IMG/VR virus record: IMGVR_UViG_2740892426_000003
Length of the DNA: 34,274 bases
DNA from: a virus
Taxonomy: Duplodnaviria > Heunggongvirae > Uroviricota > Caudoviricetes
Direction: 5' to 3' (one strand)
Shown here: positions 1,829 to 34,274 of the stretch, piece after piece
Layout: each line of letters opens with the position of its first letter
Numbering within the stretch: position 1 is the first letter of the stretch
Notes under the pieces: generated by a model
The model's database searches: none
Told to the model about the DNA's origin: nothing
The model's input: the letters and a program-made list of their open reading frames with translations, nothing else
Translations under genes and position numbers: made by a program

Positions 1829-4483
1829 TTATCGTTGAAAAACCCAACACTTCACTGTCGCCGGGCGGCGCGATGCGGCTGGGTAACGGCGGTTAAATTC
1901 AGCGTTGATGCCGCTGTTAACCGTTCTGACTTCAATAAACTTGTGGGTACGGCTGGTTTTCAGTACCCGCTTTAAATCGCTGACTGGTGGGATCTGCTGG
2001 CGACGTTCGGTGGCCAGTTGAATAAAGTGGTTAAGGTTGACGGCGATAAGCTGTTCATCGCGCGAGTGGTTAAGCTGCGGTTCGTCGTCGCCATCGAGGA
2101 AGTCGAAAATATCCCAGAACTCCTGTACCAGAGGATGGTCGGCGCTGATAGCCTGCTGGCGTTCCAGACTGAGCTGGATAAACATTTCTCTGGTGGCCTG
2201 TAGCTGTTCCTCCGTGACCGGAATAACCAGCGCCAGCGCGTCGAGCAGCGCCATAAGCTGGGCGTGGTTTTTAATGATGCGGATATGGCGAATATCGGGG
2301 TGGGCGTGAAGCTGCTGCTCGTATAGCGGGATCTGCCGGTTGACGCACTCCAGCACGGCCTGTTCCGCCAGCGCTGCCTTCAGCATAAAGCCGGAAAGCA
2401 GCTCCACCGGCAGGCGTTCGAGCTGCTCGGCAGCGACCTTGGTCTGAGTATTCTGGCCGCTGCGGTCGGTGTACAGGTGAATAATACGTTCCAGCACCGG
2501 GTTAGAGGCGCTGACGTCGGCGTTTTGCGCAATTACAATCGCGCCCCGGAACGGCGGTTCATAGGTCTCGTTACCGCTGTTACGCAGACCGCGAGAACGT
2601 ACCGACCGCCCGTTGTAGGCGGTTTTCAGCTCTTCCCAATCAAAGCCGCGCTGTTTTGCACCCTCCTGATTACGGTCACCCTCGATCAGCACTACCGGCA
2701 TATTCGCCACCTGCGCAAAGTTGCGCGCGCGGGCGGCCAGCGTTGATTTAGACGGATCGAAACCTTCATAGTCGCGTCGACCCAACAGTTTCCAGAGGAA
2801 CTCTATCAGCGTGGTTTTACCGCTGCCGGGTTCGCCGACGATTTCCAGAAACGGAAAGCTCTTGTGCTTGTCGCGGATCTGTTCTGCAAACATCGTCCCA
2901 AACCAGAACGCCAGCGCCACAAAGCCCTTTGCGCCAAACGCCTGCCAGAGTAACTGGGGCCACTGGCTGTCCATCTGTTTTAAATTGTCGTTCAGCGTCA
3001 GGCTGACCGACTGGTTCAGGCTTTTAAGGCTGAGTTTGCCCATGTCGAAGAAGTCTTCTTCGTTGAGCGCGTACAGCCGACCATCGCGAACGGCCAGATC
3101 GTTGAACACGTAAGCGCGGTATTCTTTGCTATAGCCGATAAAATCGGTGGTCTGGACGGTTTTGATTTTGGGAAGTTGCTTGAGCAGCAGCTTATCTAAC
3201 TGCTGACTAGTGCCAGTAAAGATGCCGCCCTGTGCGATATGCAGCAGGCGCTTTTTGAATTCTGAGCCGCTGGAAAGTTGGGAGCCGGTGAAGGTGTTTT
3301 TTATCGGCGGCGTGTCGTCCGGGAAGTTAATGCGAAAGTAATACCAGCTTTCGTCGGTGATGGTGTTGGCCTGATAGTAGAGGGCGGTCGGGTAGCAGTT
3401 GGCGATCTCCACCACGGCGGACGACTCTTTCAGCGCCTTCTGTTTCAGCTCTTCTTCGCTCAGGTCGTCATTGGAGAATGAGATACTTTCATGCACCCGC
3501 ATATAGCGGTCAATATCCAGCTTGAACCAGAACAGGCGGCTGTCAAACTCGAAGTGGAACTCTTTACGCTCTGTCTGTTCGTGCATCAGCAGGGCTTTGG
3601 CGGCGGGAGAGGTGGCGATCAGCAGAGAGCCGTAGTAGCGGTATTTCTTCACTAGCTCTGGGTTAAGCCGGTCGCGTTGGTGCAAATCGTTCCAGTCCAG
3701 CTTGCTGCGGGAATGCGGCGTCTGTGCGGCGGCTGCGCTCCAGCCTTCGTCCCGGCTGCGCTTTACCCATCGCCGGGTATAGCTCATGCCCGCCTTGTCG
3801 TTATCCAGCGCCCATACCAGTAAAGGGCGCTTTTTATCCACGAACAGCGCGGCCAGTTGGTTTAACGCCTGCGCCGGATAGTTGTTGCAGGTCATCAGGG
3901 AAACGGCGGCGATGCCGTGGTGGTGCAGGGCGATAGCGTCAAAAATGCCCTCAACCAGCCAGATCTCCTGCTGCCCTTCCAGCTTCAGCGTTGGCAATTG
4001 CCACCATAGCCCGCTGTAAGCGCCGTGAAAATTGGCTTTGCGATCGCCGAAACGCTGCGGGCGGTCAACGATCCGCTCCCACCACACGCCGTCAGCCAGC
4101 GGGAAACGCACGGTGGCCGAGCCGATATCGCGCCGTGCGTCGTAGTAGTTCTCTTGAGCGTAACAGTCACGGATCAGCGAAAGATCAAAGCCGCGCATCT
4201 CGCGCAGGTAGGCATCGGCGGCGGCCTGTGGGTTTTCCGGGGTTGGGGGATATCTGTCTGACCAGCTTTCAAACAGTTCCGGGTACACCTCTTTGATATG
4301 GATTTCGGCATTGCATTTATTCAGACGACCGCAGCGCAGTACCCACGGGCTGATGGCGTTGGTGTATAGCTCCTTTTTCTGGCAGTCCGGGCAGACGCCC
4401 TGCCGCAGCCAGTCGCCCTGTTCTTTAAAGGAAAAGTCGGCCAGCAGTCGCCGCGTAATTTCCTGATGAAGTTGTGGTTGCAT
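1829..4483 (-). CDS. P4 alpha-like DNA primase-helicase (zinc-binding primase N-terminus, Toprim, D5/SF3-like NTPase)
   Basis: 884-aa ORF; N-terminal Cys cluster (CPDC...C..C), Toprim-like LVEGIFDAIALHHHG, Walker A GEPGSGKTT and Walker B-like VVLIEGD. Architecture as in satellite P4 alpha and PICI pri-rep proteins. Confidence 0.85.
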   Translation of the reverse strand: MQPQLHQEITRRLLADFSFKEQGDWLRQGVCPDCQKKELYTNAISPWVLRCGRLNKCNAEIHIKEVYPELFESWSDRYPPTPENPQAAADAYLREMRGFDLSLIRDCYAQENYYDARRDIGSATVRFPLADGVWWERIVDRPQRFGDRKANFHGAYSGLWWQLPTLKLEGQQEIWLVEGIFDAIALHHHGIAAVSLMTCNNYPAQALNQLAALFVDKKRPLLVWALDNDKAGMSYTRRWVKRSRDEGWSAAAAQTPHSRSKLDWNDLHQRDRLNPELVKKYRYYGSLLIATSPAAKALLMHEQTERKEFHFEFDSRLFWFKLDIDRYMRVHESISFSNDDLSEEELKQKALKESSAVVEIANCYPTALYYQANTITDESWYYFRINFPDDTPPIKNTFTGSQLSSGSEFKKRLLHIAQGGIFTGTSQQLDKLLLKQLPKIKTVQTTDFIGYSKEYRAYVFNDLAVRDGRLYALNEEDFFDMGKLSLKSLNQSVSLTLNDNLKQMDSQWPQLLWQAFGAKGFVALAFWFGTMFAEQIRDKHKSFPFLEIVGEPGSGKTTLIEFLWKLLGRRDYEGFDPSKSTLAARARNFAQVANMPVVLIEGDRNQEGAKQRGFDWEELKTAYNGRSVRSRGLRNSGNETYEPPFRGAIVIAQNADVSASNPVLERIIHLYTDRSGQNTQTKVAAEQLERLPVELLSGFMLKAALAEQAVLECVNRQIPLYEQQLHAHPDIRHIRIIKNHAQLMALLDALALVIPVTEEQLQATREMFIQLSLERQQAISADHPLVQEFWDIFDFLDGDDEPQLNHSRDEQLIAVNLNHFIQLATERRQQIPPVSDLKRVLKTSRTHKFIEVRTVNSGINAEFNRRYPAASRRPATVKCWVFQR

Positions 4484-4571
4484 TGCCAGTACCTTTATTC
4501 AGGTAATACTTACCCGTCGCACAGACACGTTGTTTATGCGTTGTGGTTGTGAGTCTTTTATTTACTGAGTG

Positions 4572-4802
4572 TTACGCGATTTTCTGCTTTTGCAGAAATT
4601 GCCCGCGTGTGGATAGCGGGATGTGTATCTTAGGATTCGGGCAACCGCTCGGTACCACTGTTCCCATCACGGTTTCCATTGCGATAAATGAAAACGAACA
4701 GTTAACGTTTTTGCACTGGTAATAGAGCTTACGTACCAGCGGTGACATATATTCGCTGCTGCGAATTATCGCCTTACCGTCGCAGTGTGGGCATTTCATC
4801 AT
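4572..4802 (-). CDS. ogr: Ogr/Delta-family zinc-finger late transcription activator
   Basis: MMKCPHCDGKAIIRSSEYMSPLVRKLYYQCKNVNCSFSF has the CxxC...CxxxxC zinc-finger of P2 Ogr. Start set at the ATG-ATG pair preceded by AAGGAGA; the ORF-track start at 4820 is probably an upstream overextension. Confidence 0.85.
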   Translation of the reverse strand: MMKCPHCDGKAIIRSSEYMSPLVRKLYYQCKNVNCSFSFIAMETVMGTVVPSGCPNPKIHIPLSTRGQFLQKQKIA

Positions 4803-4838
4803 GTCCTGTCTCCTTACCACTTTTAACTAACTGAAACA

Positions 4839-5045
4839 CTAACGCTTTTCGTTAACGGACTGACGAAATAGTGTGATGCCGTTCAAAAAAATGATTCTTG
4901 CCATGCTGGACATCGAACGGTTCTGATCCAGCGCTAATGCTTCCAGTTCCGCGATTTCAGCGGGGAGCAGGCGCATTGCCACCGGTTTGTTCGACATCAC
5001 CCCGCGAGGCGCTCTTGAGCGTAAGACGTTCTCATTTGTTTTCAT
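4839..5045 (-). CDS. small ribbon-helix-helix (CopG/Arc-like) DNA-binding protein, first gene of the leftward ogr-primase transcription unit
   Basis: 68-aa ORF 18 nt upstream of ogr. VAMRLLPAEIAELEALA...RSMSSMARIIF looks like an RHH beta-strand plus helices. Divergent from the HTH gene across an 80-bp control region. Start may be internal. Confidence 0.5.
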   Translation of the reverse strand: MKTNENVLRSRAPRGVMSNKPVAMRLLPAEIAELEALALDQNRSMSSMARIIFLNGITLFRQSVNEKR

Positions 5046-5125
5046 GGTGGTATATTGTGGTTATTAACATTACACAATCTATAATTCCCTCAATTGAGTG
5101 AATTGTCAATGGTAATTATATCCAA

Positions 5126-5461
5126 ATGAAAGAATTTGGCATCCGTTTGAAGGAAGAACGTATCCGACTTGGACTTGATCAAGACGGCTTTGGACAACTT
5201 GGGGGCGTGAAGAAAAACGCACAAAGCAACTATGAGAATGGGTTGCGCAAGCCGGACAGTGACTATCTTGCTGGCATAGCGGCAGCGGGAGTTGATGTTC
5301 TGTATGTTCTAACAGGCAACCGCACGCCTGTGGTTACGTTGTCCAGTAAAGAGAGTGTGTTGGTGGAAAACTATCGTTCTGCTACGCCAGAACACCAGTC
5401 CACCCTTGACACGGTTAGCGCTGCGCTTGCGCAACCGATGAATTGTCGAAAAGTACAATGA
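5126..5461 (+). CDS. XRE-family helix-turn-helix transcriptional regulator (possible prophage repressor)
   Basis: 111-aa ORF; N-terminal GIRLKEERIRLGLDQDGFGQLGGVKKNAQSNYENGLRKPDSDYLAGIAAAGVDVLYVLTG is a Cro/C1-type HTH. First gene of a three-gene plus-strand operon. Confidence 0.75.
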   Translation: MKEFGIRLKEERIRLGLDQDGFGQLGGVKKNAQSNYENGLRKPDSDYLAGIAAAGVDVLYVLTGNRTPVVTLSSKESVLVENYRSATPEHQSTLDTVSAALAQPMNCRKVQ

Positions 5462-5491
5462 TTTATTAAATTCAGCTTATTAGGAGTAATT

Positions 5492-6580
5492 ATGGCAAAT
5501 GTCGGCTTTTCTTTTGAGGGGGTGATGATTGAAAGAATTATTGCTCATCGAATCTTCCCAAGGTCTCCCGATAAGCAAATGGTTCCACCTAAGTTAAGTA
5601 ATCAGTTAATAACGTTAGAACAAGATGCTTTGGATGCACTACAGGTTCGTATAACAGAAGCCTTAGGTAATAAATCTCATGGCATTGAAATGTCTATCAC
5701 TGATACCGGTGATGATAGTTTTTTTGCACTGACAACGTCTGTACTACATGTTGAAGGCGAATCATTTATTAACGTATCTAAGCGATTGGCGCATAAGTTA
5801 ACAGAAGCTCAATATAGTGCGGGGAAGGTTTCCGGTGGTGTGTTAGTAATCATTACGGGAAAAATTGGTGAACAAGCCTGCCCATTCTTTGCTGTACTGC
5901 GTGCTGAAATGCAAAACGGATTTCGGACCAATGATACCCCAGAGAAAATAGCGATGGAGTATATTGCTGACTTATTACTTACACCAACTCAGCGGCTTTA
6001 TAAAATAGGAGTGTTGATTGAGTGTGAGTCAGGCCATGAATTGATTGATGGTCGTTGTGATACGCAATATTATCGTTCATTTTTATTTGATCACTTGATG
6101 ACATCGACGGAAACTAAAAATGCTGCGGGGTATTTTTACAGTGTTTTTCTTGGAATGGGGATCGAAAAATCCTCCAAGAAATTGACGCAGGATTTTTTTG
6201 AACATACTCGAAATTTCATTAATCAGGCTCCAGTTGATGAGGAAACTAAGTTTGATTTACACGAGTCATTACGTTCTGAACTGAGAAGTCAGAAAGCAAC
6301 TTTGAGTACCGCTTCGTTTGCTACGGAACATCTTCCTCAAGAATTACAGACGAGCTATCAGTCATTTATGGCTCAAAAAGGTTTTCCGCAGAATGCAGTG
6401 TCTAAAGATACTGATTATATTAAGAAAAAGCTTCGTCGTAGAAGTAAATTAGTGTTTACAAGCGATGTATGGATATCCATACCACCAGATCAAGTAAAAG
6501 AACTGGTACAGATTGAACAAACAGATGATGATGAGTCAACTACACTTAAAGTCAAAGGGCGGTTGAAAAGTCAAGAATGA
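5492..6580 (+). CDS. NA37/YejK (NdpA)-like nucleoid-associated-protein-family protein; candidate DNA-binding sensor or antitoxin component
   Basis: 362-aa ORF with RBS TAGGAG upstream. By-eye similarity to E. coli YejK recalled from memory: I..H.I near the N-terminus, a GG-hydrophobic stretch (SGGVLVIITG), FLGMG...DFF, and C-terminal F..KG...TL.VKG. Very AT-rich relative to flanking phage genes. Stop overlaps the next start (ATGA). Confidence 0.55.
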   Translation: MANVGFSFEGVMIERIIAHRIFPRSPDKQMVPPKLSNQLITLEQDALDALQVRITEALGNKSHGIEMSITDTGDDSFFALTTSVLHVEGESFINVSKRLAHKLTEAQYSAGKVSGGVLVIITGKIGEQACPFFAVLRAEMQNGFRTNDTPEKIAMEYIADLLLTPTQRLYKIGVLIECESGHELIDGRCDTQYYRSFLFDHLMTSTETKNAAGYFYSVFLGMGIEKSSKKLTQDFFEHTRNFINQAPVDEETKFDLHESLRSELRSQKATLSTASFATEHLPQELQTSYQSFMAQKGFPQNAVSKDTDYIKKKLRRRSKLVFTSDVWISIPPDQVKELVQIEQTDDDESTTLKVKGRLKSQE

Positions 6581-7578
6581 TGAGTATAGAGGATTTTAGA
6601 CGTTATCTGGTTGAAAACCATGCTGCTTATGAAGCATGGGGTAAACATATTGCGTCTGAAATCAATGCGGCTTTGATTGAACAACTTGGTGAAGGGGCCG
6701 CCCAGCTCTTCATCAAGGTACCACCCACTCCGAGAGTTAAAGGTATCGAGTCCGCATTAGGGAAGGTTGGTCGTAAAGGTTATAACAACCCTGTTCAGCA
6801 GATGACGGATCTCGTTGGCGTTCGTTTTGTCGTTTTACTTTCTGAAGATATTGAGACAATCTGTAAAATCATTCAGAATAATGAACAATGGATAGCTGTT
6901 GTTTCTAAAGATTATCAGGATGAAATAGAGGTAAACCCTAAACTATTTGATTATCAATCAAAGCATTTTGAAATAAGGCCAAAGATAAATAGCGTTATAT
7001 CGGGAGTTAATATTACAACTGATATGTGCTGTGAAGTACAAATTAGAACATTATTGCAGCATGCGTATGCAGAATTAGTTCATGATAGCGTTTATAAACC
7101 TGTTGGCCCCGTACCGAAAAAAGCGGAGCGCCAAATTGCGCGTAGTATGGCTTTGATGGAAACAACAGATGAATTATTTTGTAATACAATGCGGCTTTTA
7201 TGTGATACTAATAAACCAAGAAATGATTTTTTAAAGGAGTTAAAAGATTTTTATATAAATAAAATTGGGAGGCAGTATTTAAATCAGGAAGATAAAATAA
7301 ATTATTGTTTTTTAGATGAGTATAGGTCGTTTATACAAGAAGATCTTTTGACTAATCTAATCGACCTTCTTGATAAGAAAAAATATATATCATATAAAAT
7401 CCAACAAAGGGCTACTGCCAATCTTTTTTTTGCGCAGCCAGTGGTCATTTTTACTTACTGGCTGGCAATAAATGAAGACAGTAATAAATTACAGCAAGAA
7501 TGGCCGTTACCTGGATATTTGAACGAATTGAGAATGATTTTAAGTGATGTTGGTGTAAGTAGCGGTATTGGATATTAA
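6577..7578 (+). CDS. RelA/SpoT-homologue nucleotidyltransferase (small-alarmone-synthetase/toxSAS-like) with ~150-aa C-terminal extension
   Basis: 333-aa ORF. Synthetase-domain motifs are visible: PRVKGIESALGKVGRKG, TDLVGVRFVV, and CEVQIRTLLQHAYAE (the E-[IV]-Q-I-R-T...H...AE signature). C-terminal third is K/N-rich, AT-rich and unassigned. Translationally coupled to the upstream gene. Confidence 0.8.
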   Translation: MMSIEDFRRYLVENHAAYEAWGKHIASEINAALIEQLGEGAAQLFIKVPPTPRVKGIESALGKVGRKGYNNPVQQMTDLVGVRFVVLLSEDIETICKIIQNNEQWIAVVSKDYQDEIEVNPKLFDYQSKHFEIRPKINSVISGVNITTDMCCEVQIRTLLQHAYAELVHDSVYKPVGPVPKKAERQIARSMALMETTDELFCNTMRLLCDTNKPRNDFLKELKDFYINKIGRQYLNQEDKINYCFLDEYRSFIQEDLLTNLIDLLDKKKYISYKIQQRATANLFFAQPVVIFTYWLAINEDSNKLQQEWPLPGYLNELRMILSDVGVSSGIGY

Positions 7579-8681
7579 TCTTCCAGCCCCAACTCACACT
7601 CCACCGCCGTCCCATACCCACTGCTGTTATCCAACGTATGCACACACCGCGTAATCACCCACGCGGTGCCGTCAATCTCCGCCTTAAACCCCTTAACCTG
7701 CAGTGGTAATTCCGGGAACAAATCGGGCCGTCCACGCGCAAGATTCAGGCTGAACGTTGCCGCGCCGCGCTGTAATTGCTCCCACGCGCTTTTTGCCGCC
7801 CGGTAGGCGTTATTTTTGTTGGCATAGGTGTGGCGCAACACCTTGATATTTCCCTCTTCGCCTACCATCACGTTATCGGCGTTGAATGAGGCGTCTGATG
7901 GGGGAGATTCCGTTGGTTGCGTTTGCGGACGATTTTTCCGTGTCTTGCGCTTCACGTCAGTGGACTGCTTTTTAGCCTGCCGCGTATCCAGCCAGTAGGC
8001 CGTAACGCCGGTATAGGCTTCCCTGTCCGCGATGCTGAACCGGTGACTGTCGCCGTCCTCGCGGGTAATGGTTGCGACCGGCAGCGGCTTTCCGCTGGCG
8101 CTTTTACCGGAACCTGTCGGCATCAGTAACAGAGCATCATTTTTCACGCAGGCGATAGCGCCGTGCATTTGCGCCAGCCGGGTCAGGAAGGAGGCATCGG
8201 ATTCGTTAGTCTGGTCAACGTGCTCAATGGCGATCCCAGCCAGCTCGCCGCTGACGGTTGATTCCAGCTTATGGCGCGCCGCCACGGTTTGCACAATCGC
8301 GCCCAGCGTCACATCATGGTAGCTCTGTTCCCGTTTAACGTTCAGCGAATCGCGGAAATCGGCGCTGCGGGCGCGGAGGCTGAGTACGTCCGGTGCGCCG
8401 CTGTGCTCCAGTTCGTCCACGGTGAAGACATTCTGGTGCATCACGCCGTCACCCTTCCAGCCCAGAGAAACCGTTAGCTTTTCGCCCTTTGCCGGAAACG
8501 CCAGCAGGCCGTCGCTGTCGTCCAGTTCGAGCTGCAGTTCGTCGGCCTCAAAGCCCCGGTTGTCGGTGATACGCAGGCTGATTAAGCGGTTGTCCAGATT
8601 CCGCGTAATGTCCTTACCATTCAGCACCACGCTGTACTCCGGCTGCGGTTGGGCGTTTAAGAGTGCGTTTAACATCGTCAT
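7575..8681 (-). CDS. D: tail protein D (late control gene D, P2 gpD-like)
   Basis: 368-aa ORF at the 3' end of the E-T-U-D tail operon; gene order and length as in P2. Confidence 0.85.
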   Translation of the reverse strand: MTMLNALLNAQPQPEYSVVLNGKDITRNLDNRLISLRITDNRGFEADELQLELDDSDGLLAFPAKGEKLTVSLGWKGDGVMHQNVFTVDELEHSGAPDVLSLRARSADFRDSLNVKREQSYHDVTLGAIVQTVAARHKLESTVSGELAGIAIEHVDQTNESDASFLTRLAQMHGAIACVKNDALLLMPTGSGKSASGKPLPVATITREDGDSHRFSIADREAYTGVTAYWLDTRQAKKQSTDVKRKTRKNRPQTQPTESPPSDASFNADNVMVGEEGNIKVLRHTYANKNNAYRAAKSAWEQLQRGAATFSLNLARGRPDLFPELPLQVKGFKAEIDGTAWVITRCVHTLDNSSGYGTAVECELGLED

Positions 8682-9106
8682 AGTCCGTCTACCATCGTGA
8701 TGATGTCGCCCAGCAAGCCACCCAGCTTCGGCGGATCGACACGTTTTAACGCCAGCGTAAACTCAATGCGCCGGGCCGCACCGTCGCGAAAAAAGACGCT
8801 CCGGGTGACGTTCAGACTCTCAATCACAAACCAGCCATGCAGCGAGCCGGTGCCTTCAATCAGCGGCCACGCCATCCCCTGATCGGCCATCTTACGCAGG
8901 AAAAACAGGGTAAATCGCCCGCCGGTCAGTTCCGGCAACAGCACGCCGTTTAGCGTAATGGTTTCGTCACCCACGCCGATAAACTGGCTGGCCGGACGTA
9001 GCCCCACGCGGGAACTGGCAGGATGCCGCCACGCTACGGCGTGCTGCATATCCTGATAGGGCAGGGTTTTCAGGCTGAAGACGAACAGCCCCAGTACCAT
9101 CATCAT
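8678..9106 (-). CDS. U: tail protein U (P2 gpU-like)
   Basis: Start set at the internal ATG-ATG-ATG (MMMVLGLFVFSLKT...) preceded by TAAGGAG and overlapping the T stop; the ORF-track start at 9214 would run into gene T. Confidence 0.85.
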   Translation of the reverse strand: MMMVLGLFVFSLKTLPYQDMQHAVAWRHPASSRVGLRPASQFIGVGDETITLNGVLLPELTGGRFTLFFLRKMADQGMAWPLIEGTGSLHGWFVIESLNVTRSVFFRDGAARRIEFTLALKRVDPPKLGGLLGDIITMVDGL

Positions 9107-14204: not shown

Positions 14205-14963
14205 TTAATTCAGGATAATCAATTCTGATGTGGTGCTGGCTGGCTTTCCACCTACAGTATAGCGAATCCCTACCGTTGAAAATGTCAGGCCGTGGAAGAT
14301 ATCGCGCATTTCCGGGATGTCATTAACCGAGATAATCATCCGGCCCTGCATGGTGCGCGCCAGCTCTGCCATACGCTGGTACTGCTCAAGGCCAAATGGT
14401 ACGCCGTAGCCTTCGGTTTTCCAGTATGGCGGGTCGCAGTAGAACAGGGTATGCGGGCGGTCATAGCGGCGAATACAGTCGACCCAGTCCAGATTTTCAA
14501 TACAGACGCGCGCCAGCCGCAGATGGGCGGCGGATAAATCCTCTTCCATACGCAGCAGGTTCAGGCGCGGCGGTGAGGTGGTGGCGGTACCGAACGTGCG
14601 GCTTTCCACCTTACCGCCGAATGCCAGCTTTTGCAGATAGTAGAAGCGCGCCGCGCGCTGGATGTCGGTCAGCGTTTCTTCCGGGGTGATCTGGAGCCAG
14701 CGGTACATTTCGCGACTGACCAGCGACCATTTAAACTGGCGGACAAACTCTTCTAAATGGTGCTGGAGTACGCGGTAGAGGTTGGTAACGTCACCATTGA
14801 TATCGTTCAGCACCTCGGCCTGAGCGGGCTGTTTCATAAAGAACAACGCCGCCGCCCCGCAGAACGGTTCAACGTAGCAGCGGTGTTTGGGAAACAGCGG
14901 CAGAATGTGTTTTGCCAGCCTGCGCTTACCGCCGATCCACGGAATAATGGGTAACGTATTCAT
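14205..14963 (-). CDS. dam: Dam-family N6-adenine DNA methyltransferase (orphan, inside the late tail-fibre operon)
   Basis: 252-aa ORF with SAM-binding FCGAAALF and catalytic DPPY (YCDPPYW). Sits between G and FI, the position of Z/fun in P2. Confidence 0.85.
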   Translation of the reverse strand: MNTLPIIPWIGGKRRLAKHILPLFPKHRCYVEPFCGAAALFFMKQPAQAEVLNDINGDVTNLYRVLQHHLEEFVRQFKWSLVSREMYRWLQITPEETLTDIQRAARFYYLQKLAFGGKVESRTFGTATTSPPRLNLLRMEEDLSAAHLRLARVCIENLDWVDCIRRYDRPHTLFYCDPPYWKTEGYGVPFGLEQYQRMAELARTMQGRMIISVNDIPEMRDIFHGLTFSTVGIRYTVGGKPASTTSELIILN

Positions 14964-33203: not shown

Positions 33204-33743
33204 TTAATTAAACCAGCTATCTGATTTATTCTCTTCTGCTTTGCCCACGCTTTTCATCAGATCGCGACCGCCTTCAGTCATATTCCTGTTTGCGTCAGCT
33301 TCAGATTGCACCACATCGGTTTGCGCAGCTTTGTGCTTCAGTTCCTGATCGATAAATTCGTTTTCTCGCTTAACGCGGGCTTCTTCTTTCGCCAGCGCCA
33401 GTTTTTGCTTCTGAATCTCTAAGCTGCGTAGCTCATCTTCATAACTTTGATCGCGTTTTTTGTCCGCAGTGGCTTCGGCGTCCAGTTTATCCTGACGAGC
33501 TTTCTTATTCGCCGCTGCCGTTGCCGCTCTTTTATTAGCCGCGGCCTGGGCGTTTGCGCGACGTTGCTTCTCTTGCTGGATTTCCCTGTTGCGCTCCGCG
33601 ACCCATTCGTCATGCTGCCTTTGCTCTTCATTTTTACCTTGCTGTTCCGCTTCTGCGACAGCCGAGAGTTGATCCTGCAATGATGAGGCGATAGCCGGAT
33701 AGCTTAAGGAGGCTAAGATGGCGCAAAGAAAAACTTTCTTCAT
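33204..33743 (-). CDS. exported (signal-peptide) charged coiled-coil protein, function unknown
   Basis: 179-aa ORF with N-terminal signal peptide and highly charged K/E/A/Q-rich helical region; unclear whether phage cargo or host. Confidence 0.6.
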   Translation of the reverse strand: MKKVFLCAILASLSYPAIASSLQDQLSAVAEAEQQGKNEEQRQHDEWVAERNREIQQEKQRRANAQAAANKRAATAAANKKARQDKLDAEATADKKRDQSYEDELRSLEIQKQKLALAKEEARVKRENEFIDQELKHKAAQTDVVQSEADANRNMTEGGRDLMKSVGKAEENKSDSWFN

Positions 33744-33758
33744 GACTCCTCCTGATCA

Positions 33759-34274
33759 TTAGCTCTTTTCAGGACATTTCGTATTTGGCTGAATACGCGT
33801 TTCGTTATACGTCGTGGTAATAACAACGGCTAAACCTGTCGTAAACTGGCACTCTTTACCCACCTGGGTGGAGGTATACACTTTGGTGCCTTCCTTATAC
33901 GTTAGAGAAACACCTTCCACTAAGGTTTTATCATTCACCATAGAACCCGCTGCCGCGCCAACAGCTCCGCCGCCAACTGCACCTGCCGTCGTTCCGGAAT
34001 TGCTGCCAGACCCCACGTTGTGGCCGATTACACCGCCAGCGACTGCACCAATAAGCGCGCCGAAGGCTTGTGCATTTCGTTTATTTTGGGCGTTGTCTAC
34101 GGCAACTTTTGCGGGAAGAATGGAAATAATATTAACGGTTTTAGTTTCTTGTTTGGTATTCAGTTGATCGGTTTGATAAACATCGGCGGCATGATCATCA
34201 GCATTTGACTGGCATCCTGCCAGAGTGAATGACGCTAACATTGCCACAGGCAGAAGACATTTTTTAAATTTCAT
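33759..34274 (-). CDS. glycine-zipper lipoprotein (predicted outer-membrane lipoprotein)
   Basis: 171-aa ORF starting at the last codon of the window; lipobox LAGC and a Gly-zipper segment (GALIGAVAGGVIGHNVG...GAVGGGAVGAAAG). Confidence 0.7.
   Translation of the reverse strand: MKFKKCLLPVAMLASFTLAGCQSNADDHAADVYQTDQLNTKQETKTVNIISILPAKVAVDNAQNKRNAQAFGALIGAVAGGVIGHNVGSGSNSGTTAGAVGGGAVGAAAGSMVNDKTLVEGVSLTYKEGTKVYTSTQVGKECQFTTGLAVVITTTYNETRIQPNTKCPEKS

Follow-up and report, generated by a model that had tools for sequence, protein, structure and literature searches.

A prophage-borne gene pair resembling Type I PANGU in the slot between a repressor-like gene and gene D of a P2-family prophage

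PANGU systems are two-gene operons that encode a YejK-like nucleoid-associated protein (NAP; PagA) and an effector (PagB), as described in a preprint dated 6 April 2026 (bioRxiv 10.64898/2026.04.06.716658). In Type I PANGU the NAP, Pag1A, is paired with Pag1B, a toxSAS of the GRel subfamily, and the operon is recognized by a NAP gene lying directly upstream of the effector gene, on the same strand and less than 40 bp from it. The DNA analyzed here is a stretch of 34,274 nucleotides (nt), IMG/VR record IMGVR_UViG_2740892426_000003 (the window), which constitutes a complete P2-family prophage with integrase, P2-type capsid, GPO scaffold, terminase, portal, sheath, tube, and fibre genes. Two of its genes (genes 2 and 3, positions 5492 to 7578) quite probably make up an anti-phage system of the Type I PANGU kind, an accessory cargo lying between a repressor-like helix-turn-helix (HTH) gene and gene D of the prophage.

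Validated Type I variants come from Ferrimonas futtsuensis (Ff), which was studied in most detail, Pseudomonas aeruginosa (Pa), and Escherichia coli (Ec), the last of these having been assayed against Bas34 (bioRxiv 10.64898/2026.04.06.716658). According to the same preprint, Pag1B consists of a synthetase domain, an "alpha-helical linker," and an acidic DNA-mimic domain ("DMK") that binds the NAP, and Pag1A-Pag1B pairs co-evolve. In its account, Pag1A covers the chromosome and Pag1B is a tetramer lacking activity; host DNA breakdown during T4 infection, through EndoII and subsequently other nucleases, liberates Pag1A, two subunits of which bind the C-terminal domain of one Pag1B. Protection by the Ff, Pa, and Ec variants depends on both genes. 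Neither the Ff nor the Pa proteins were toxic, singly or together; Pag1B was inactive in vitro without Pag1A, and a Pag1A unable to bind DNA rendered the pair toxic. The Ff proteins converted ATP and GTP into AMP and pppGpp and left tRNA unlabelled, T4 escaped PANGU through mutations in denA, and homologues were protective when cloned without phage context (bioRxiv 10.64898/2026.04.06.716658).

A different YejK-domain pair, DS-1, was validated in E. coli by DefensePredictor (bioRxiv January 2025; Science 2026, PMC13092281). DS-1, comprising the NAP WP_000355468.1 and the hypothetical protein WP_000150292.1, and Type II PANGU, which joins a NAP to a transmembrane effector, are two-gene defence operons with a YejK/NA37 protein, like the pair in the window, and both have been validated in E. 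coli. Unlike in the window, however, their effectors are not RelA/SpoT proteins, and the DS-1 NAP has an additional zinc-ribbon-like region at its N terminus. The DefensePredictor supplement (PMC13092281) also lists a NAP of 362 amino acids (aa), whose cluster is represented by WP_074388881.1, as a "Predicted novel defense gene"; this accession is the one annotated for the counterpart of gene 2 in E. coli L725. The cluster was not found among the DefensePredictor tested units and is a prediction only.

The features of the window on which the comparison rests are as follows.

5126-5461, + strand: HTH gene (XRE-type, 111 aa; HTH_3/HTH_31 Pfam matches, E about 3e-5)
5438-7628, + strand: variable cargo module, AT-rich, about 2.15 to 2.2 kb, containing two genes and the final few codons of each neighbouring gene
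5492-6580, + strand: gene 2, pag1A-like, NA37/YejK-family nucleoid-associated protein, 362 aa (PF04245, E 9.5e-15, residues 17-356)
6577-7578, + strand: gene 3, pag1B-like, GRel-type small alarmone synthetase, 333 aa (PF04607, E 1.7e-18, residues 53-174)
6724-7101, + strand: toxSYNTH synthetase domain of gene 3 (approximately aa 50-175, with D78, G-loop Y126, and E153/Q155; AlphaFold2 model, pLDDT 87.7)
7117-7263, + strand: long single alpha-helix of gene 3 (aa 181-229) linking its two domains (DSSP on the AlphaFold2 model)
7264-7575, + strand: C-terminal all-helical domain of gene 3 (aa 230-333), counterpart of the Pag1B "DMK" domain (helices 239-324 at high pLDDT)

A previous examination of this DNA from its letters alone (the sequence-only reading) had reported three co-oriented genes with HTH, NA37/YejK, and RelA/SpoT domains, and both the open reading frames (ORFs) and these domains proved real, with the PF04245 and PF04607 profile matches for genes 2 and 3. 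The protein encoded by gene 2 additionally matched phrog_1974 (E 2e-71), a family of "unknown function" in PHROGs. Its AlphaFold2 model (pLDDT 80.5) had one significant fold match in the Protein Data Bank (PDB), namely E. coli YejK (9BE2; E 7.4e-10 over 357 columns), while a PDB sequence search with gene 2 returned no match even at E values up to 1, and tblastn of gene 2 against the phage collection also returned none.

For gene 3, the RelA/SpoT fold was upheld by the structural comparison: the best PDB folds for the model were RelQ/RelP (E about 1e-8, TMt 0.75 to 0.84), which were also the only significant PDB sequence matches. The protein further matched phrog_32462 (E 9e-129), again of "unknown function" in PHROGs. 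The motif residues that had been singled out in the sequence-only reading, the Asp of TDLVGVRF (D78) and the Glu and Gln of EVQIRT (E153/Q155), were invariant in 34 homologues, as were W309, L311, and D324 of the C-terminal domain. The G-loop tyrosine, Y126, aligned with Y129 of Ff Pag1B, in a column occupied by Tyr in 49/49 sequences. No PDB fold match covering aa 230-333 was obtained for the C-terminal domain. The reported overlap of the last two genes is present as ATGA at 6577-6580.

One genome per species was searched with a profile made from relatives of gene 3, which yielded 49 loci, among them one (L040) in F. futtsuensis DSM 18154. The ORFs of this locus agree with the preprint at all 15 of its numbered residues, seven of seven in Pag1B (Y129, R258, E272, R279, R306, H314, and E337) and eight of eight in Pag1A (K6, E47, K52, K200, R203, K204, E278, and D282), and it was therefore identified as PANGU-Ff. 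Profiles built from relatives of the window pair detected its two ORFs at E values of 4.5e-77 and 1.1e-96. Aligned end to end, gene 2 and Ff Pag1A were identical at 121 of 354 positions (34%), and gene 3 and Ff Pag1B at 100 of 329 (30%). In 46 of the 49 loci, the gene immediately preceding GRel on the same strand encoded NA37, and the two mostly overlapped by 4 or 1 nt; the remaining three loci were interrupted by the ends of contigs or were fragmentary, such that all 46 testable loci had the arrangement.

The window therefore shares with Type I PANGU the gene order, the overlapping frames, the YejK fold, the domain layout of gene 3, and the catalytic G-loop tyrosine, and differs in that its copy lies immediately after the repressor gene of a P2-like prophage; the word "prophage" occurs 0 times in the text of the preprint (bioRxiv 10.64898/2026.04.06.716658). 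On these alignments it is very likely that genes 2 and 3 are a Type I PANGU homologue. The pair had previously been put forward as an undescribed system, a claim staked on there being no match to a named one; because the combination of a NAP with a GRel enzyme has been named Type I PANGU, that claim falls. E. coli carries at least two Type I variants and no accession or strain for PANGU-Ec is given in the preprint text, and thus the window cassette may or may not equal PANGU-Ec. The second variant, found in E. coli Z1323HEC0423 near zinT (L060:3495-5974), is divergent and encodes an NA37 protein of 351 aa, a RelA_SpoT protein of 327 aa, and a DUF4231/SLATT protein of 145 aa beside degraded integrase genes. 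This type was present in 5/5,426 complete E. coli genomes.

That the window pair works as described for PANGU is likely, if somewhat less so than its membership, as function is carried over here from homologues. By this analogy, the suggestion in the sequence-only reading of a sensor-effector pair with an anti-phage role and a toxSAS-type gene 3 is supported, and we infer that the gene 2 protein is a DNA-bound sensor and activator and not an antitoxin. In an uninfected lysogen, by homology, the NA37 protein would coat the chromosome as a dimer while GRel would persist as a tetrameric cytoplasmic enzyme without activity. Superinfection by a lytic phage that degrades host DNA (such as T4, through EndoII and then later nucleases) would free the NA37 protein, which would dock on the C-terminal helical domain of GRel to give a 2:1 complex of two NA37 proteins and one GRel. 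The complex would then move pyrophosphate from ATP to GTP, GDP, or GMP, so that (pp)pGpp would rise and ATP and GTP would be drained; transcription and translation would halt and the infection would be aborted.

Several observations weigh against this account. Identity to the validated Ff pair is only 30 to 34%, the PANGU mechanism comes from one preprint still without peer review, and the assays concern the Ff, Pa, and Ec variants. The DNA-contact residues of Ff Pag1A, K200, R203, and K204, align with T206, K209, and N210 of gene 2, so that one of the three is conserved; the interface residues R258, R306, and H314 of Ff Pag1B correspond to E255, N299, and E308 of gene 3, none of which is conserved. 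The C-terminal domain of gene 3 (230-333) has a net charge of -3 (13 D/E and 10 K/R), a weak acidity compared with the -7 of Ff on which the "DNA mimic" idea is based. Likewise, the promoters from which the pair would be co-transcribed with the repressor-like gene are consensus matches, 9 in a scan against 8.6 expected, which is not above chance.

The column of K209, the middle DNA-contact position, holds R or K in 36/47 sequences, and the gene 2 protein has other basic patches (KSSKK at 226-230 and KKKLRRRSK at 311-319). The C-terminal domain of Ff Pag1B is the most acidic among the 49 family members, which have a median charge of -2 in this domain and range up to +2. In view of this extreme acidity of the Ff domain, the "DNA mimic" property may not hold across Type I PANGU. 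Of all the steps carried over from the preprint, DNA mimicry is the least secure, and the membership of the window pair in Type I PANGU is unbroken by the divergent residues.

Because the C-terminal domain is near neutral and two of the three DNA-contact residues and all tested interface residues differ, an alternative cue can be envisaged for the clade to which the window belongs. The published DNA-mimicry route may be bypassed in these pairs, with the NA37 protein freed, or the enzyme licensed, by some other event, such as displacement or modification of the NAP by a phage protein; through its link to the repressor transcript, the pair may moreover be a lysogen-only module that is off at prophage induction. 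We regard this as rather unlikely.

A classical type II toxin-antitoxin (TA) system, in which a constitutively toxic toxSAS would be held by an NA37 antitoxin that is lost on infection, is improbable. The ATGA overlap is of a kind common in TA pairs, prophage-borne toxSAS TA systems exist, with mycobacterial prophage homologues matched in our search, and every toxSAS studied before PANGU was a TA toxin (bioRxiv 10.64898/2026.04.06.716658). The behaviour of the PANGU homologues is, however, that of an activator and its enzyme, as the Ff and Pa proteins are non-toxic, Pag1B needs Pag1A, and loss of DNA binding by Pag1A makes the pair toxic; moreover, a 362-aa DNA-binding protein of YejK fold is unlike any known toxSAS antitoxin. 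The TA logic favoured in the sequence-only reading is accordingly contradicted by non-toxic homologues in which the NAP activates the enzyme.

An equally improbable alternative is a defence pair whose enzyme pyrophosphorylates tRNA 3' ends, as do CapRel, FaRel2, and PhRel2, in place of making alarmones. The substrate choice of a toxSAS is hard to predict from sequence, the toxSYNTH fold is common to both activities, and the gene 3 model did match CapRel (7ZTB) in Foldseek (E 2.4e-5). That match had a TMt of 0.42 and a root mean square deviation of 14.2, against the far better 0.75 to 0.84 of RelQ/RelP, and CapRel gave no PDB sequence match to gene 3 at E below 0.01; gene 3 thus falls outside the CapRel-type fused toxSAS. 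The Ff pair, furthermore, made pppGpp and AMP and left tRNA unlabelled. The previously drawn analogy to CapRel and FaRel2 is for these reasons replaced by one to RelQ/RelP. CapRel(SJ46), from a Salmonella prophage, does resemble the window pair as a prophage-borne effector of RelA/SpoT fold (approximately 330 to 370 aa) with a regulatory C-terminal domain and an abortive-infection mode of action, but it is a single gene, auto-inhibited in cis, triggered by a phage capsid protein, and tRNA-modifying, whereas the window has a separate obligate partner gene.

RelQ and RelP (YjbM/YwaC) are the closest structural and sequence matches to the catalytic domain of gene 3, and RelQ is a (p)ppGpp synthetase. 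It forms a tetramer. Unlike gene 3, these enzymes have neither a C-terminal NAP-binding domain nor an NA37 partner, and gene 3 scored 48.9 bits against the YjbM/RelQ equivalog NF053588 (NCBIfam), below the cutoff of 320. A PADLOC search of the region, a check proposed in the sequence-only reading, returned matches that were partial or weak. Residues 34-166 of gene 3 matched positions 52-176 of the 349 in candidate PDC-S33 (E 1.1e-13), corresponding to the shared synthetase core alone. A literature search found no paper for PDC-S33, and one for "GRel" together with "toxSAS" found only the PANGU preprint (bioRxiv 10.64898/2026.04.06.716658).

To place the borders of the cargo, the window was aligned with a sister prophage (L002) from E. 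coli 24A16CRGN010, also present in strain GMF054, which has a like backbone and other cargo. The flanking features are as follows.

4572-4820, - strand: ogr, left-hand neighbour of the Arc-like gene
4839-5045, - strand: Arc-like (ribbon-helix-helix) regulator, 68 aa (phrog_3431 "Arc-like repressor," E 4.2e-24, full length)
5046-5125, no strand: divergent control region separating the Arc-like gene from the HTH gene, with promoter-like sites on both strands and a palindrome, 100% identical in L002
7575-8681, - strand: gene D (baseplate hub/late control D; PF05954, E 1.9e-23), right border of the cargo slot

The 68-aa Arc-like gene, ogr, and a gene for an 884-aa primase lie to the left of the cargo, all on the - strand, and genes D, U, and T lie to its right. 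The alignment showed approximately 98% identity from ogr through the Arc-like gene and the intergenic region to almost the end of the HTH gene. Homology ended on the left at about position 5437, eight codons ahead of the HTH stop codon, and resumed on the right at about 7608-7629, within the 3' end of gene D, the final 11 to 18 codons of which vary between prophages with different cargo. As the HTH gene is conserved and homology breaks from about 5437 to about 7608-7629, the variable cargo comprises two genes, and on these alignments genes 2 and 3 are the mobile unit. The insert of three genes and approximately 2.7 kb proposed in the sequence-only reading is thereby reduced to two genes and about 2.15 to 2.2 kb. 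The AT-rich block that it had noted is real, with a G+C content of 0.31 to 0.40 in genes 2 and 3 against 0.52 to 0.62 in the flanks; the HTH gene, at 0.455 to 0.463 in two profile windows that lie partly over its neighbours, is less AT-rich than the cargo.

Direct or inverted repeats flanking 5438-7628 were sought as scars of insertion, and only short matches at chance level emerged. An origin by transposon or integron was rejected, there being no flanking repeats suggestive of transposition, and cassette exchange via the conserved flanks fits the sequences better. Gene 3 on the + strand and the convergent gene D on the - strand both end in TAA, and these two stop codons share letters as TTAA at 7575-7578. 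Thus, the cargo abuts gene D with no intergenic space or terminator, and rightward transcription would be antisense to D.

The cassette of the window recurs, 98.8% identical, in a guaA-adjacent prophage of E. coli L725 and CEC15, and the same slot of P2-like Salmonella prophages carries a pair 85 to 92% identical to it. In L002 the slot (L002:4956-7958) holds a DUF6037 gene, another NA37 gene, and two hypothetical genes; the NA37 protein shares only 20% identity with that of the window, and the P2-like slot therefore alternates between two distantly related NAP-centred operons. The L002 operon may be one of the untested "PANGU-like" clusters with two hypothetical genes mentioned in the preprint. 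Among related phages, Carl1 and phiE202 have a leftward primase, ogr, and a small gene (Arc-like in phiE202), followed by a repressor, two unrelated cargo genes, and D, U, and T. Judged from these layouts, the interval from repressor to D is a general cargo slot in the phiE202/KS5/Carl1-like branch of Peduoviridae. In P2 itself, ogr directly follows D. The sequence-only reading had stated this for P2-type phages in general, which is correct for P2 but does not extend to the Peduoviridae lineage of the window, in which an Arc-like/repressor switch lies between ogr and D (Carl1 and phiE202).

Homologues of the HTH protein with 45 to 62% identity were found in Burkholderia Peduoviridae (Carl1, KS5, and phiE202) and in a Mu-like Pseudomonas phage. 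They are annotated as "immunity repressor" in Carl1 and "repressor" in Fc22, and the window protein also matched phrog_8/phrog_4 (transcriptional regulator/repressor). Salmonella prophages have a 111-aa HTH gene at the matching position. Across homologous loci, the upstream neighbour of the pair was an HTH_3 gene in only 4/47. Since the HTH gene is kept at approximately 98% identity while the cargo is replaced, has annotated repressor homologues, and is so seldom the upstream neighbour, it is taken as the switch regulator of the phage itself, and by these comparisons it belongs to the conserved phage backbone and forms the left border of the cargo slot. The protein is probably the prophage immunity repressor. 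The three-gene operon of the sequence-only reading is not sustained on the same grounds. The Arc-like gene is divergent from the HTH gene, is the first of the leftward ogr-primase unit, and is likewise backbone, outside the defence cargo; an "Arc-like repressor" is annotated at the matching position in phiE202.

In the switch region, a promoter-like site was present on the + strand (TTCTCA-16-TATATT with extended TG, 5029-5056) and two on the - strand (TTGACA-17-AATTAT at 5109-5081 and ATGCCA-16-TATAAT at 5142-5115). A 40-bp imperfect palindrome at 5074-5113 (ACAATCTATAATTCCCTCAATTGA / TCAATTGAGTGAATTGTCAATGGT), 100% conserved in L002, overlaps the leftward TTGACA-17-AATTAT site and is a candidate operator of the lysis-lysogeny switch. 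The gap between the HTH stop codon and the ATG of gene 2 is 30 nt, with an AGGAG ribosome-binding site 7 nt from the ATG, and a terminator scan found none convincing between the HTH gene and gene 2, nor after gene 3. Because of the short gap, the good ribosome-binding site, and the absence of a convincing terminator, the pair is probably co-transcribed with the HTH gene and expressed in the lysogen, as the sequence-only reading had suggested from the position of an HTH regulator divergent from the ogr-primase unit. From this anatomy, the pair would be read from the rightward switch promoter together with the repressor gene or immediately behind it, and would be on in the lysogen as a lysogenic-conversion defence. 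The rexAB genes of lambda, downstream of cI, and the old/tin/fun morons of P2 are lysogenic-conversion defences. They too are accessory anti-phage genes of temperate phages in slots expressed in the lysogen, the slot of the window being directly after a repressor-like gene, but their proteins and sensing logic are unrelated to the window pair.

A megablast of positions 4400-8700 against 50,697 phage records gave no match, and direct context for the cassette came from E. coli genomes instead. Mu-like prophages (L003:4904-6984, L004:4931-7002, and L037) carry the pair after a repressor-like gene (HTH_3 or Peptidase_S24) and ahead of the lysis and late genes, a post-repressor position that parallels the placement in the P2-like phage. 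At L037:8001-9010, in a record titled Neisseria gonorrhoeae DSM 9188, an intact NA37 gene is followed by a Rel homologue broken into two ORFs of 124 and 212 aa; this copy, within a Mu-like prophage, has probably been inactivated by a frameshift.

In three lambdoid prophages, from Yersinia kristensenii (L061), Klebsiella aerogenes (L062), and an Enterobacter-type contig (L063), the pair lies at approximately 5916-7996 on the opposite strand, between antiterminator Q and the holin/lysozyme genes. This position from Q to the lysis genes is where stx and other morons lie. In Aeromonas salmonicida (L064:5901-7993), the pair is located between a type I-F CRISPR-Cas (Csy) system and a gene for a 1,660-aa NERD/helicase/kinase-like protein, a setting that resembles a chromosomal defence island, and a neighbour survey of 47 loci found restriction enzymes and patatin adjoining the pair at some of them. 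A hallmark BLAST census around the 49 species-representative loci identified Mu-like genes at one (L037) and an integrase at five. As few P2-like or Mu-like hallmark genes lie near the 49 loci, the notion of a pair confined to prophages was abandoned; sampling of Pfam-annotated contigs then revealed the lambdoid prophages and the CRISPR-adjacent island. From these neighbourhoods, at least three families of temperate phages (P2-like, Mu-like, and lambdoid), as well as islands, carry the pair as portable cargo.

The position of the pair directly downstream of repressor-like genes in both P2-like and Mu-like prophages, and its probable co-transcription with the repressor, could also be taken to mean that the cassette serves the prophage life cycle, with an alarmone synthetase gated by chromosome integrity tuning lysogeny maintenance or induction through (p)ppGpp. 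We consider this more doubtful still than the TA and tRNA alternatives, because settings as varied as the opposite-strand lambdoid site between Q and lysis, CRISPR-Cas, restriction enzymes, and patatin are typical of portable defence cargo, and because homologues protect when cloned outside any phage. Least probable of all is a single three-component system in which the HTH protein is a dedicated regulator like CapH or BrxR, as might be suggested by three co-oriented genes, the 30-nt gap, and weak PADLOC similarity to RmrA (best E 1.8e-6) and capH (E 0.004); this was rejected since the gene is conserved with different cargo, precedes unrelated cargo in Carl1 and phiE202, has homologues annotated as phage immunity repressors, and is so rarely found upstream of the pair.

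Three further genes of the window, all on the - strand, are likely accessory. A D12-class adenine methyltransferase gene (14205-14963) lies between the sheath and tail-fibre genes, and a DUF5384 gene (33204-33743) and a gene for a glycine-zipper/TraT-like lipoprotein (33759-34274) are found towards and at the right end, respectively.

The pairing of a NAP with a GRel enzyme is already known from PANGU, and the NA37 cluster had been flagged by DefensePredictor. New here are the prophage settings (P2-like, Mu-like, and lambdoid), the weakly acidic C-terminal domain, and the poorly conserved DNA-contact residues. The natural lysogens, E. coli L725 and CEC15 and the Salmonella strains, are convenient material for the study of PANGU under native expression, and could reveal by what means a prophage keeps from setting off the genome-integrity sensor that it carries. 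The weak acidity of the C-terminal domain, together with the divergent contact residues, provides a direct test of the generality of the "DNA mimic" activation model.

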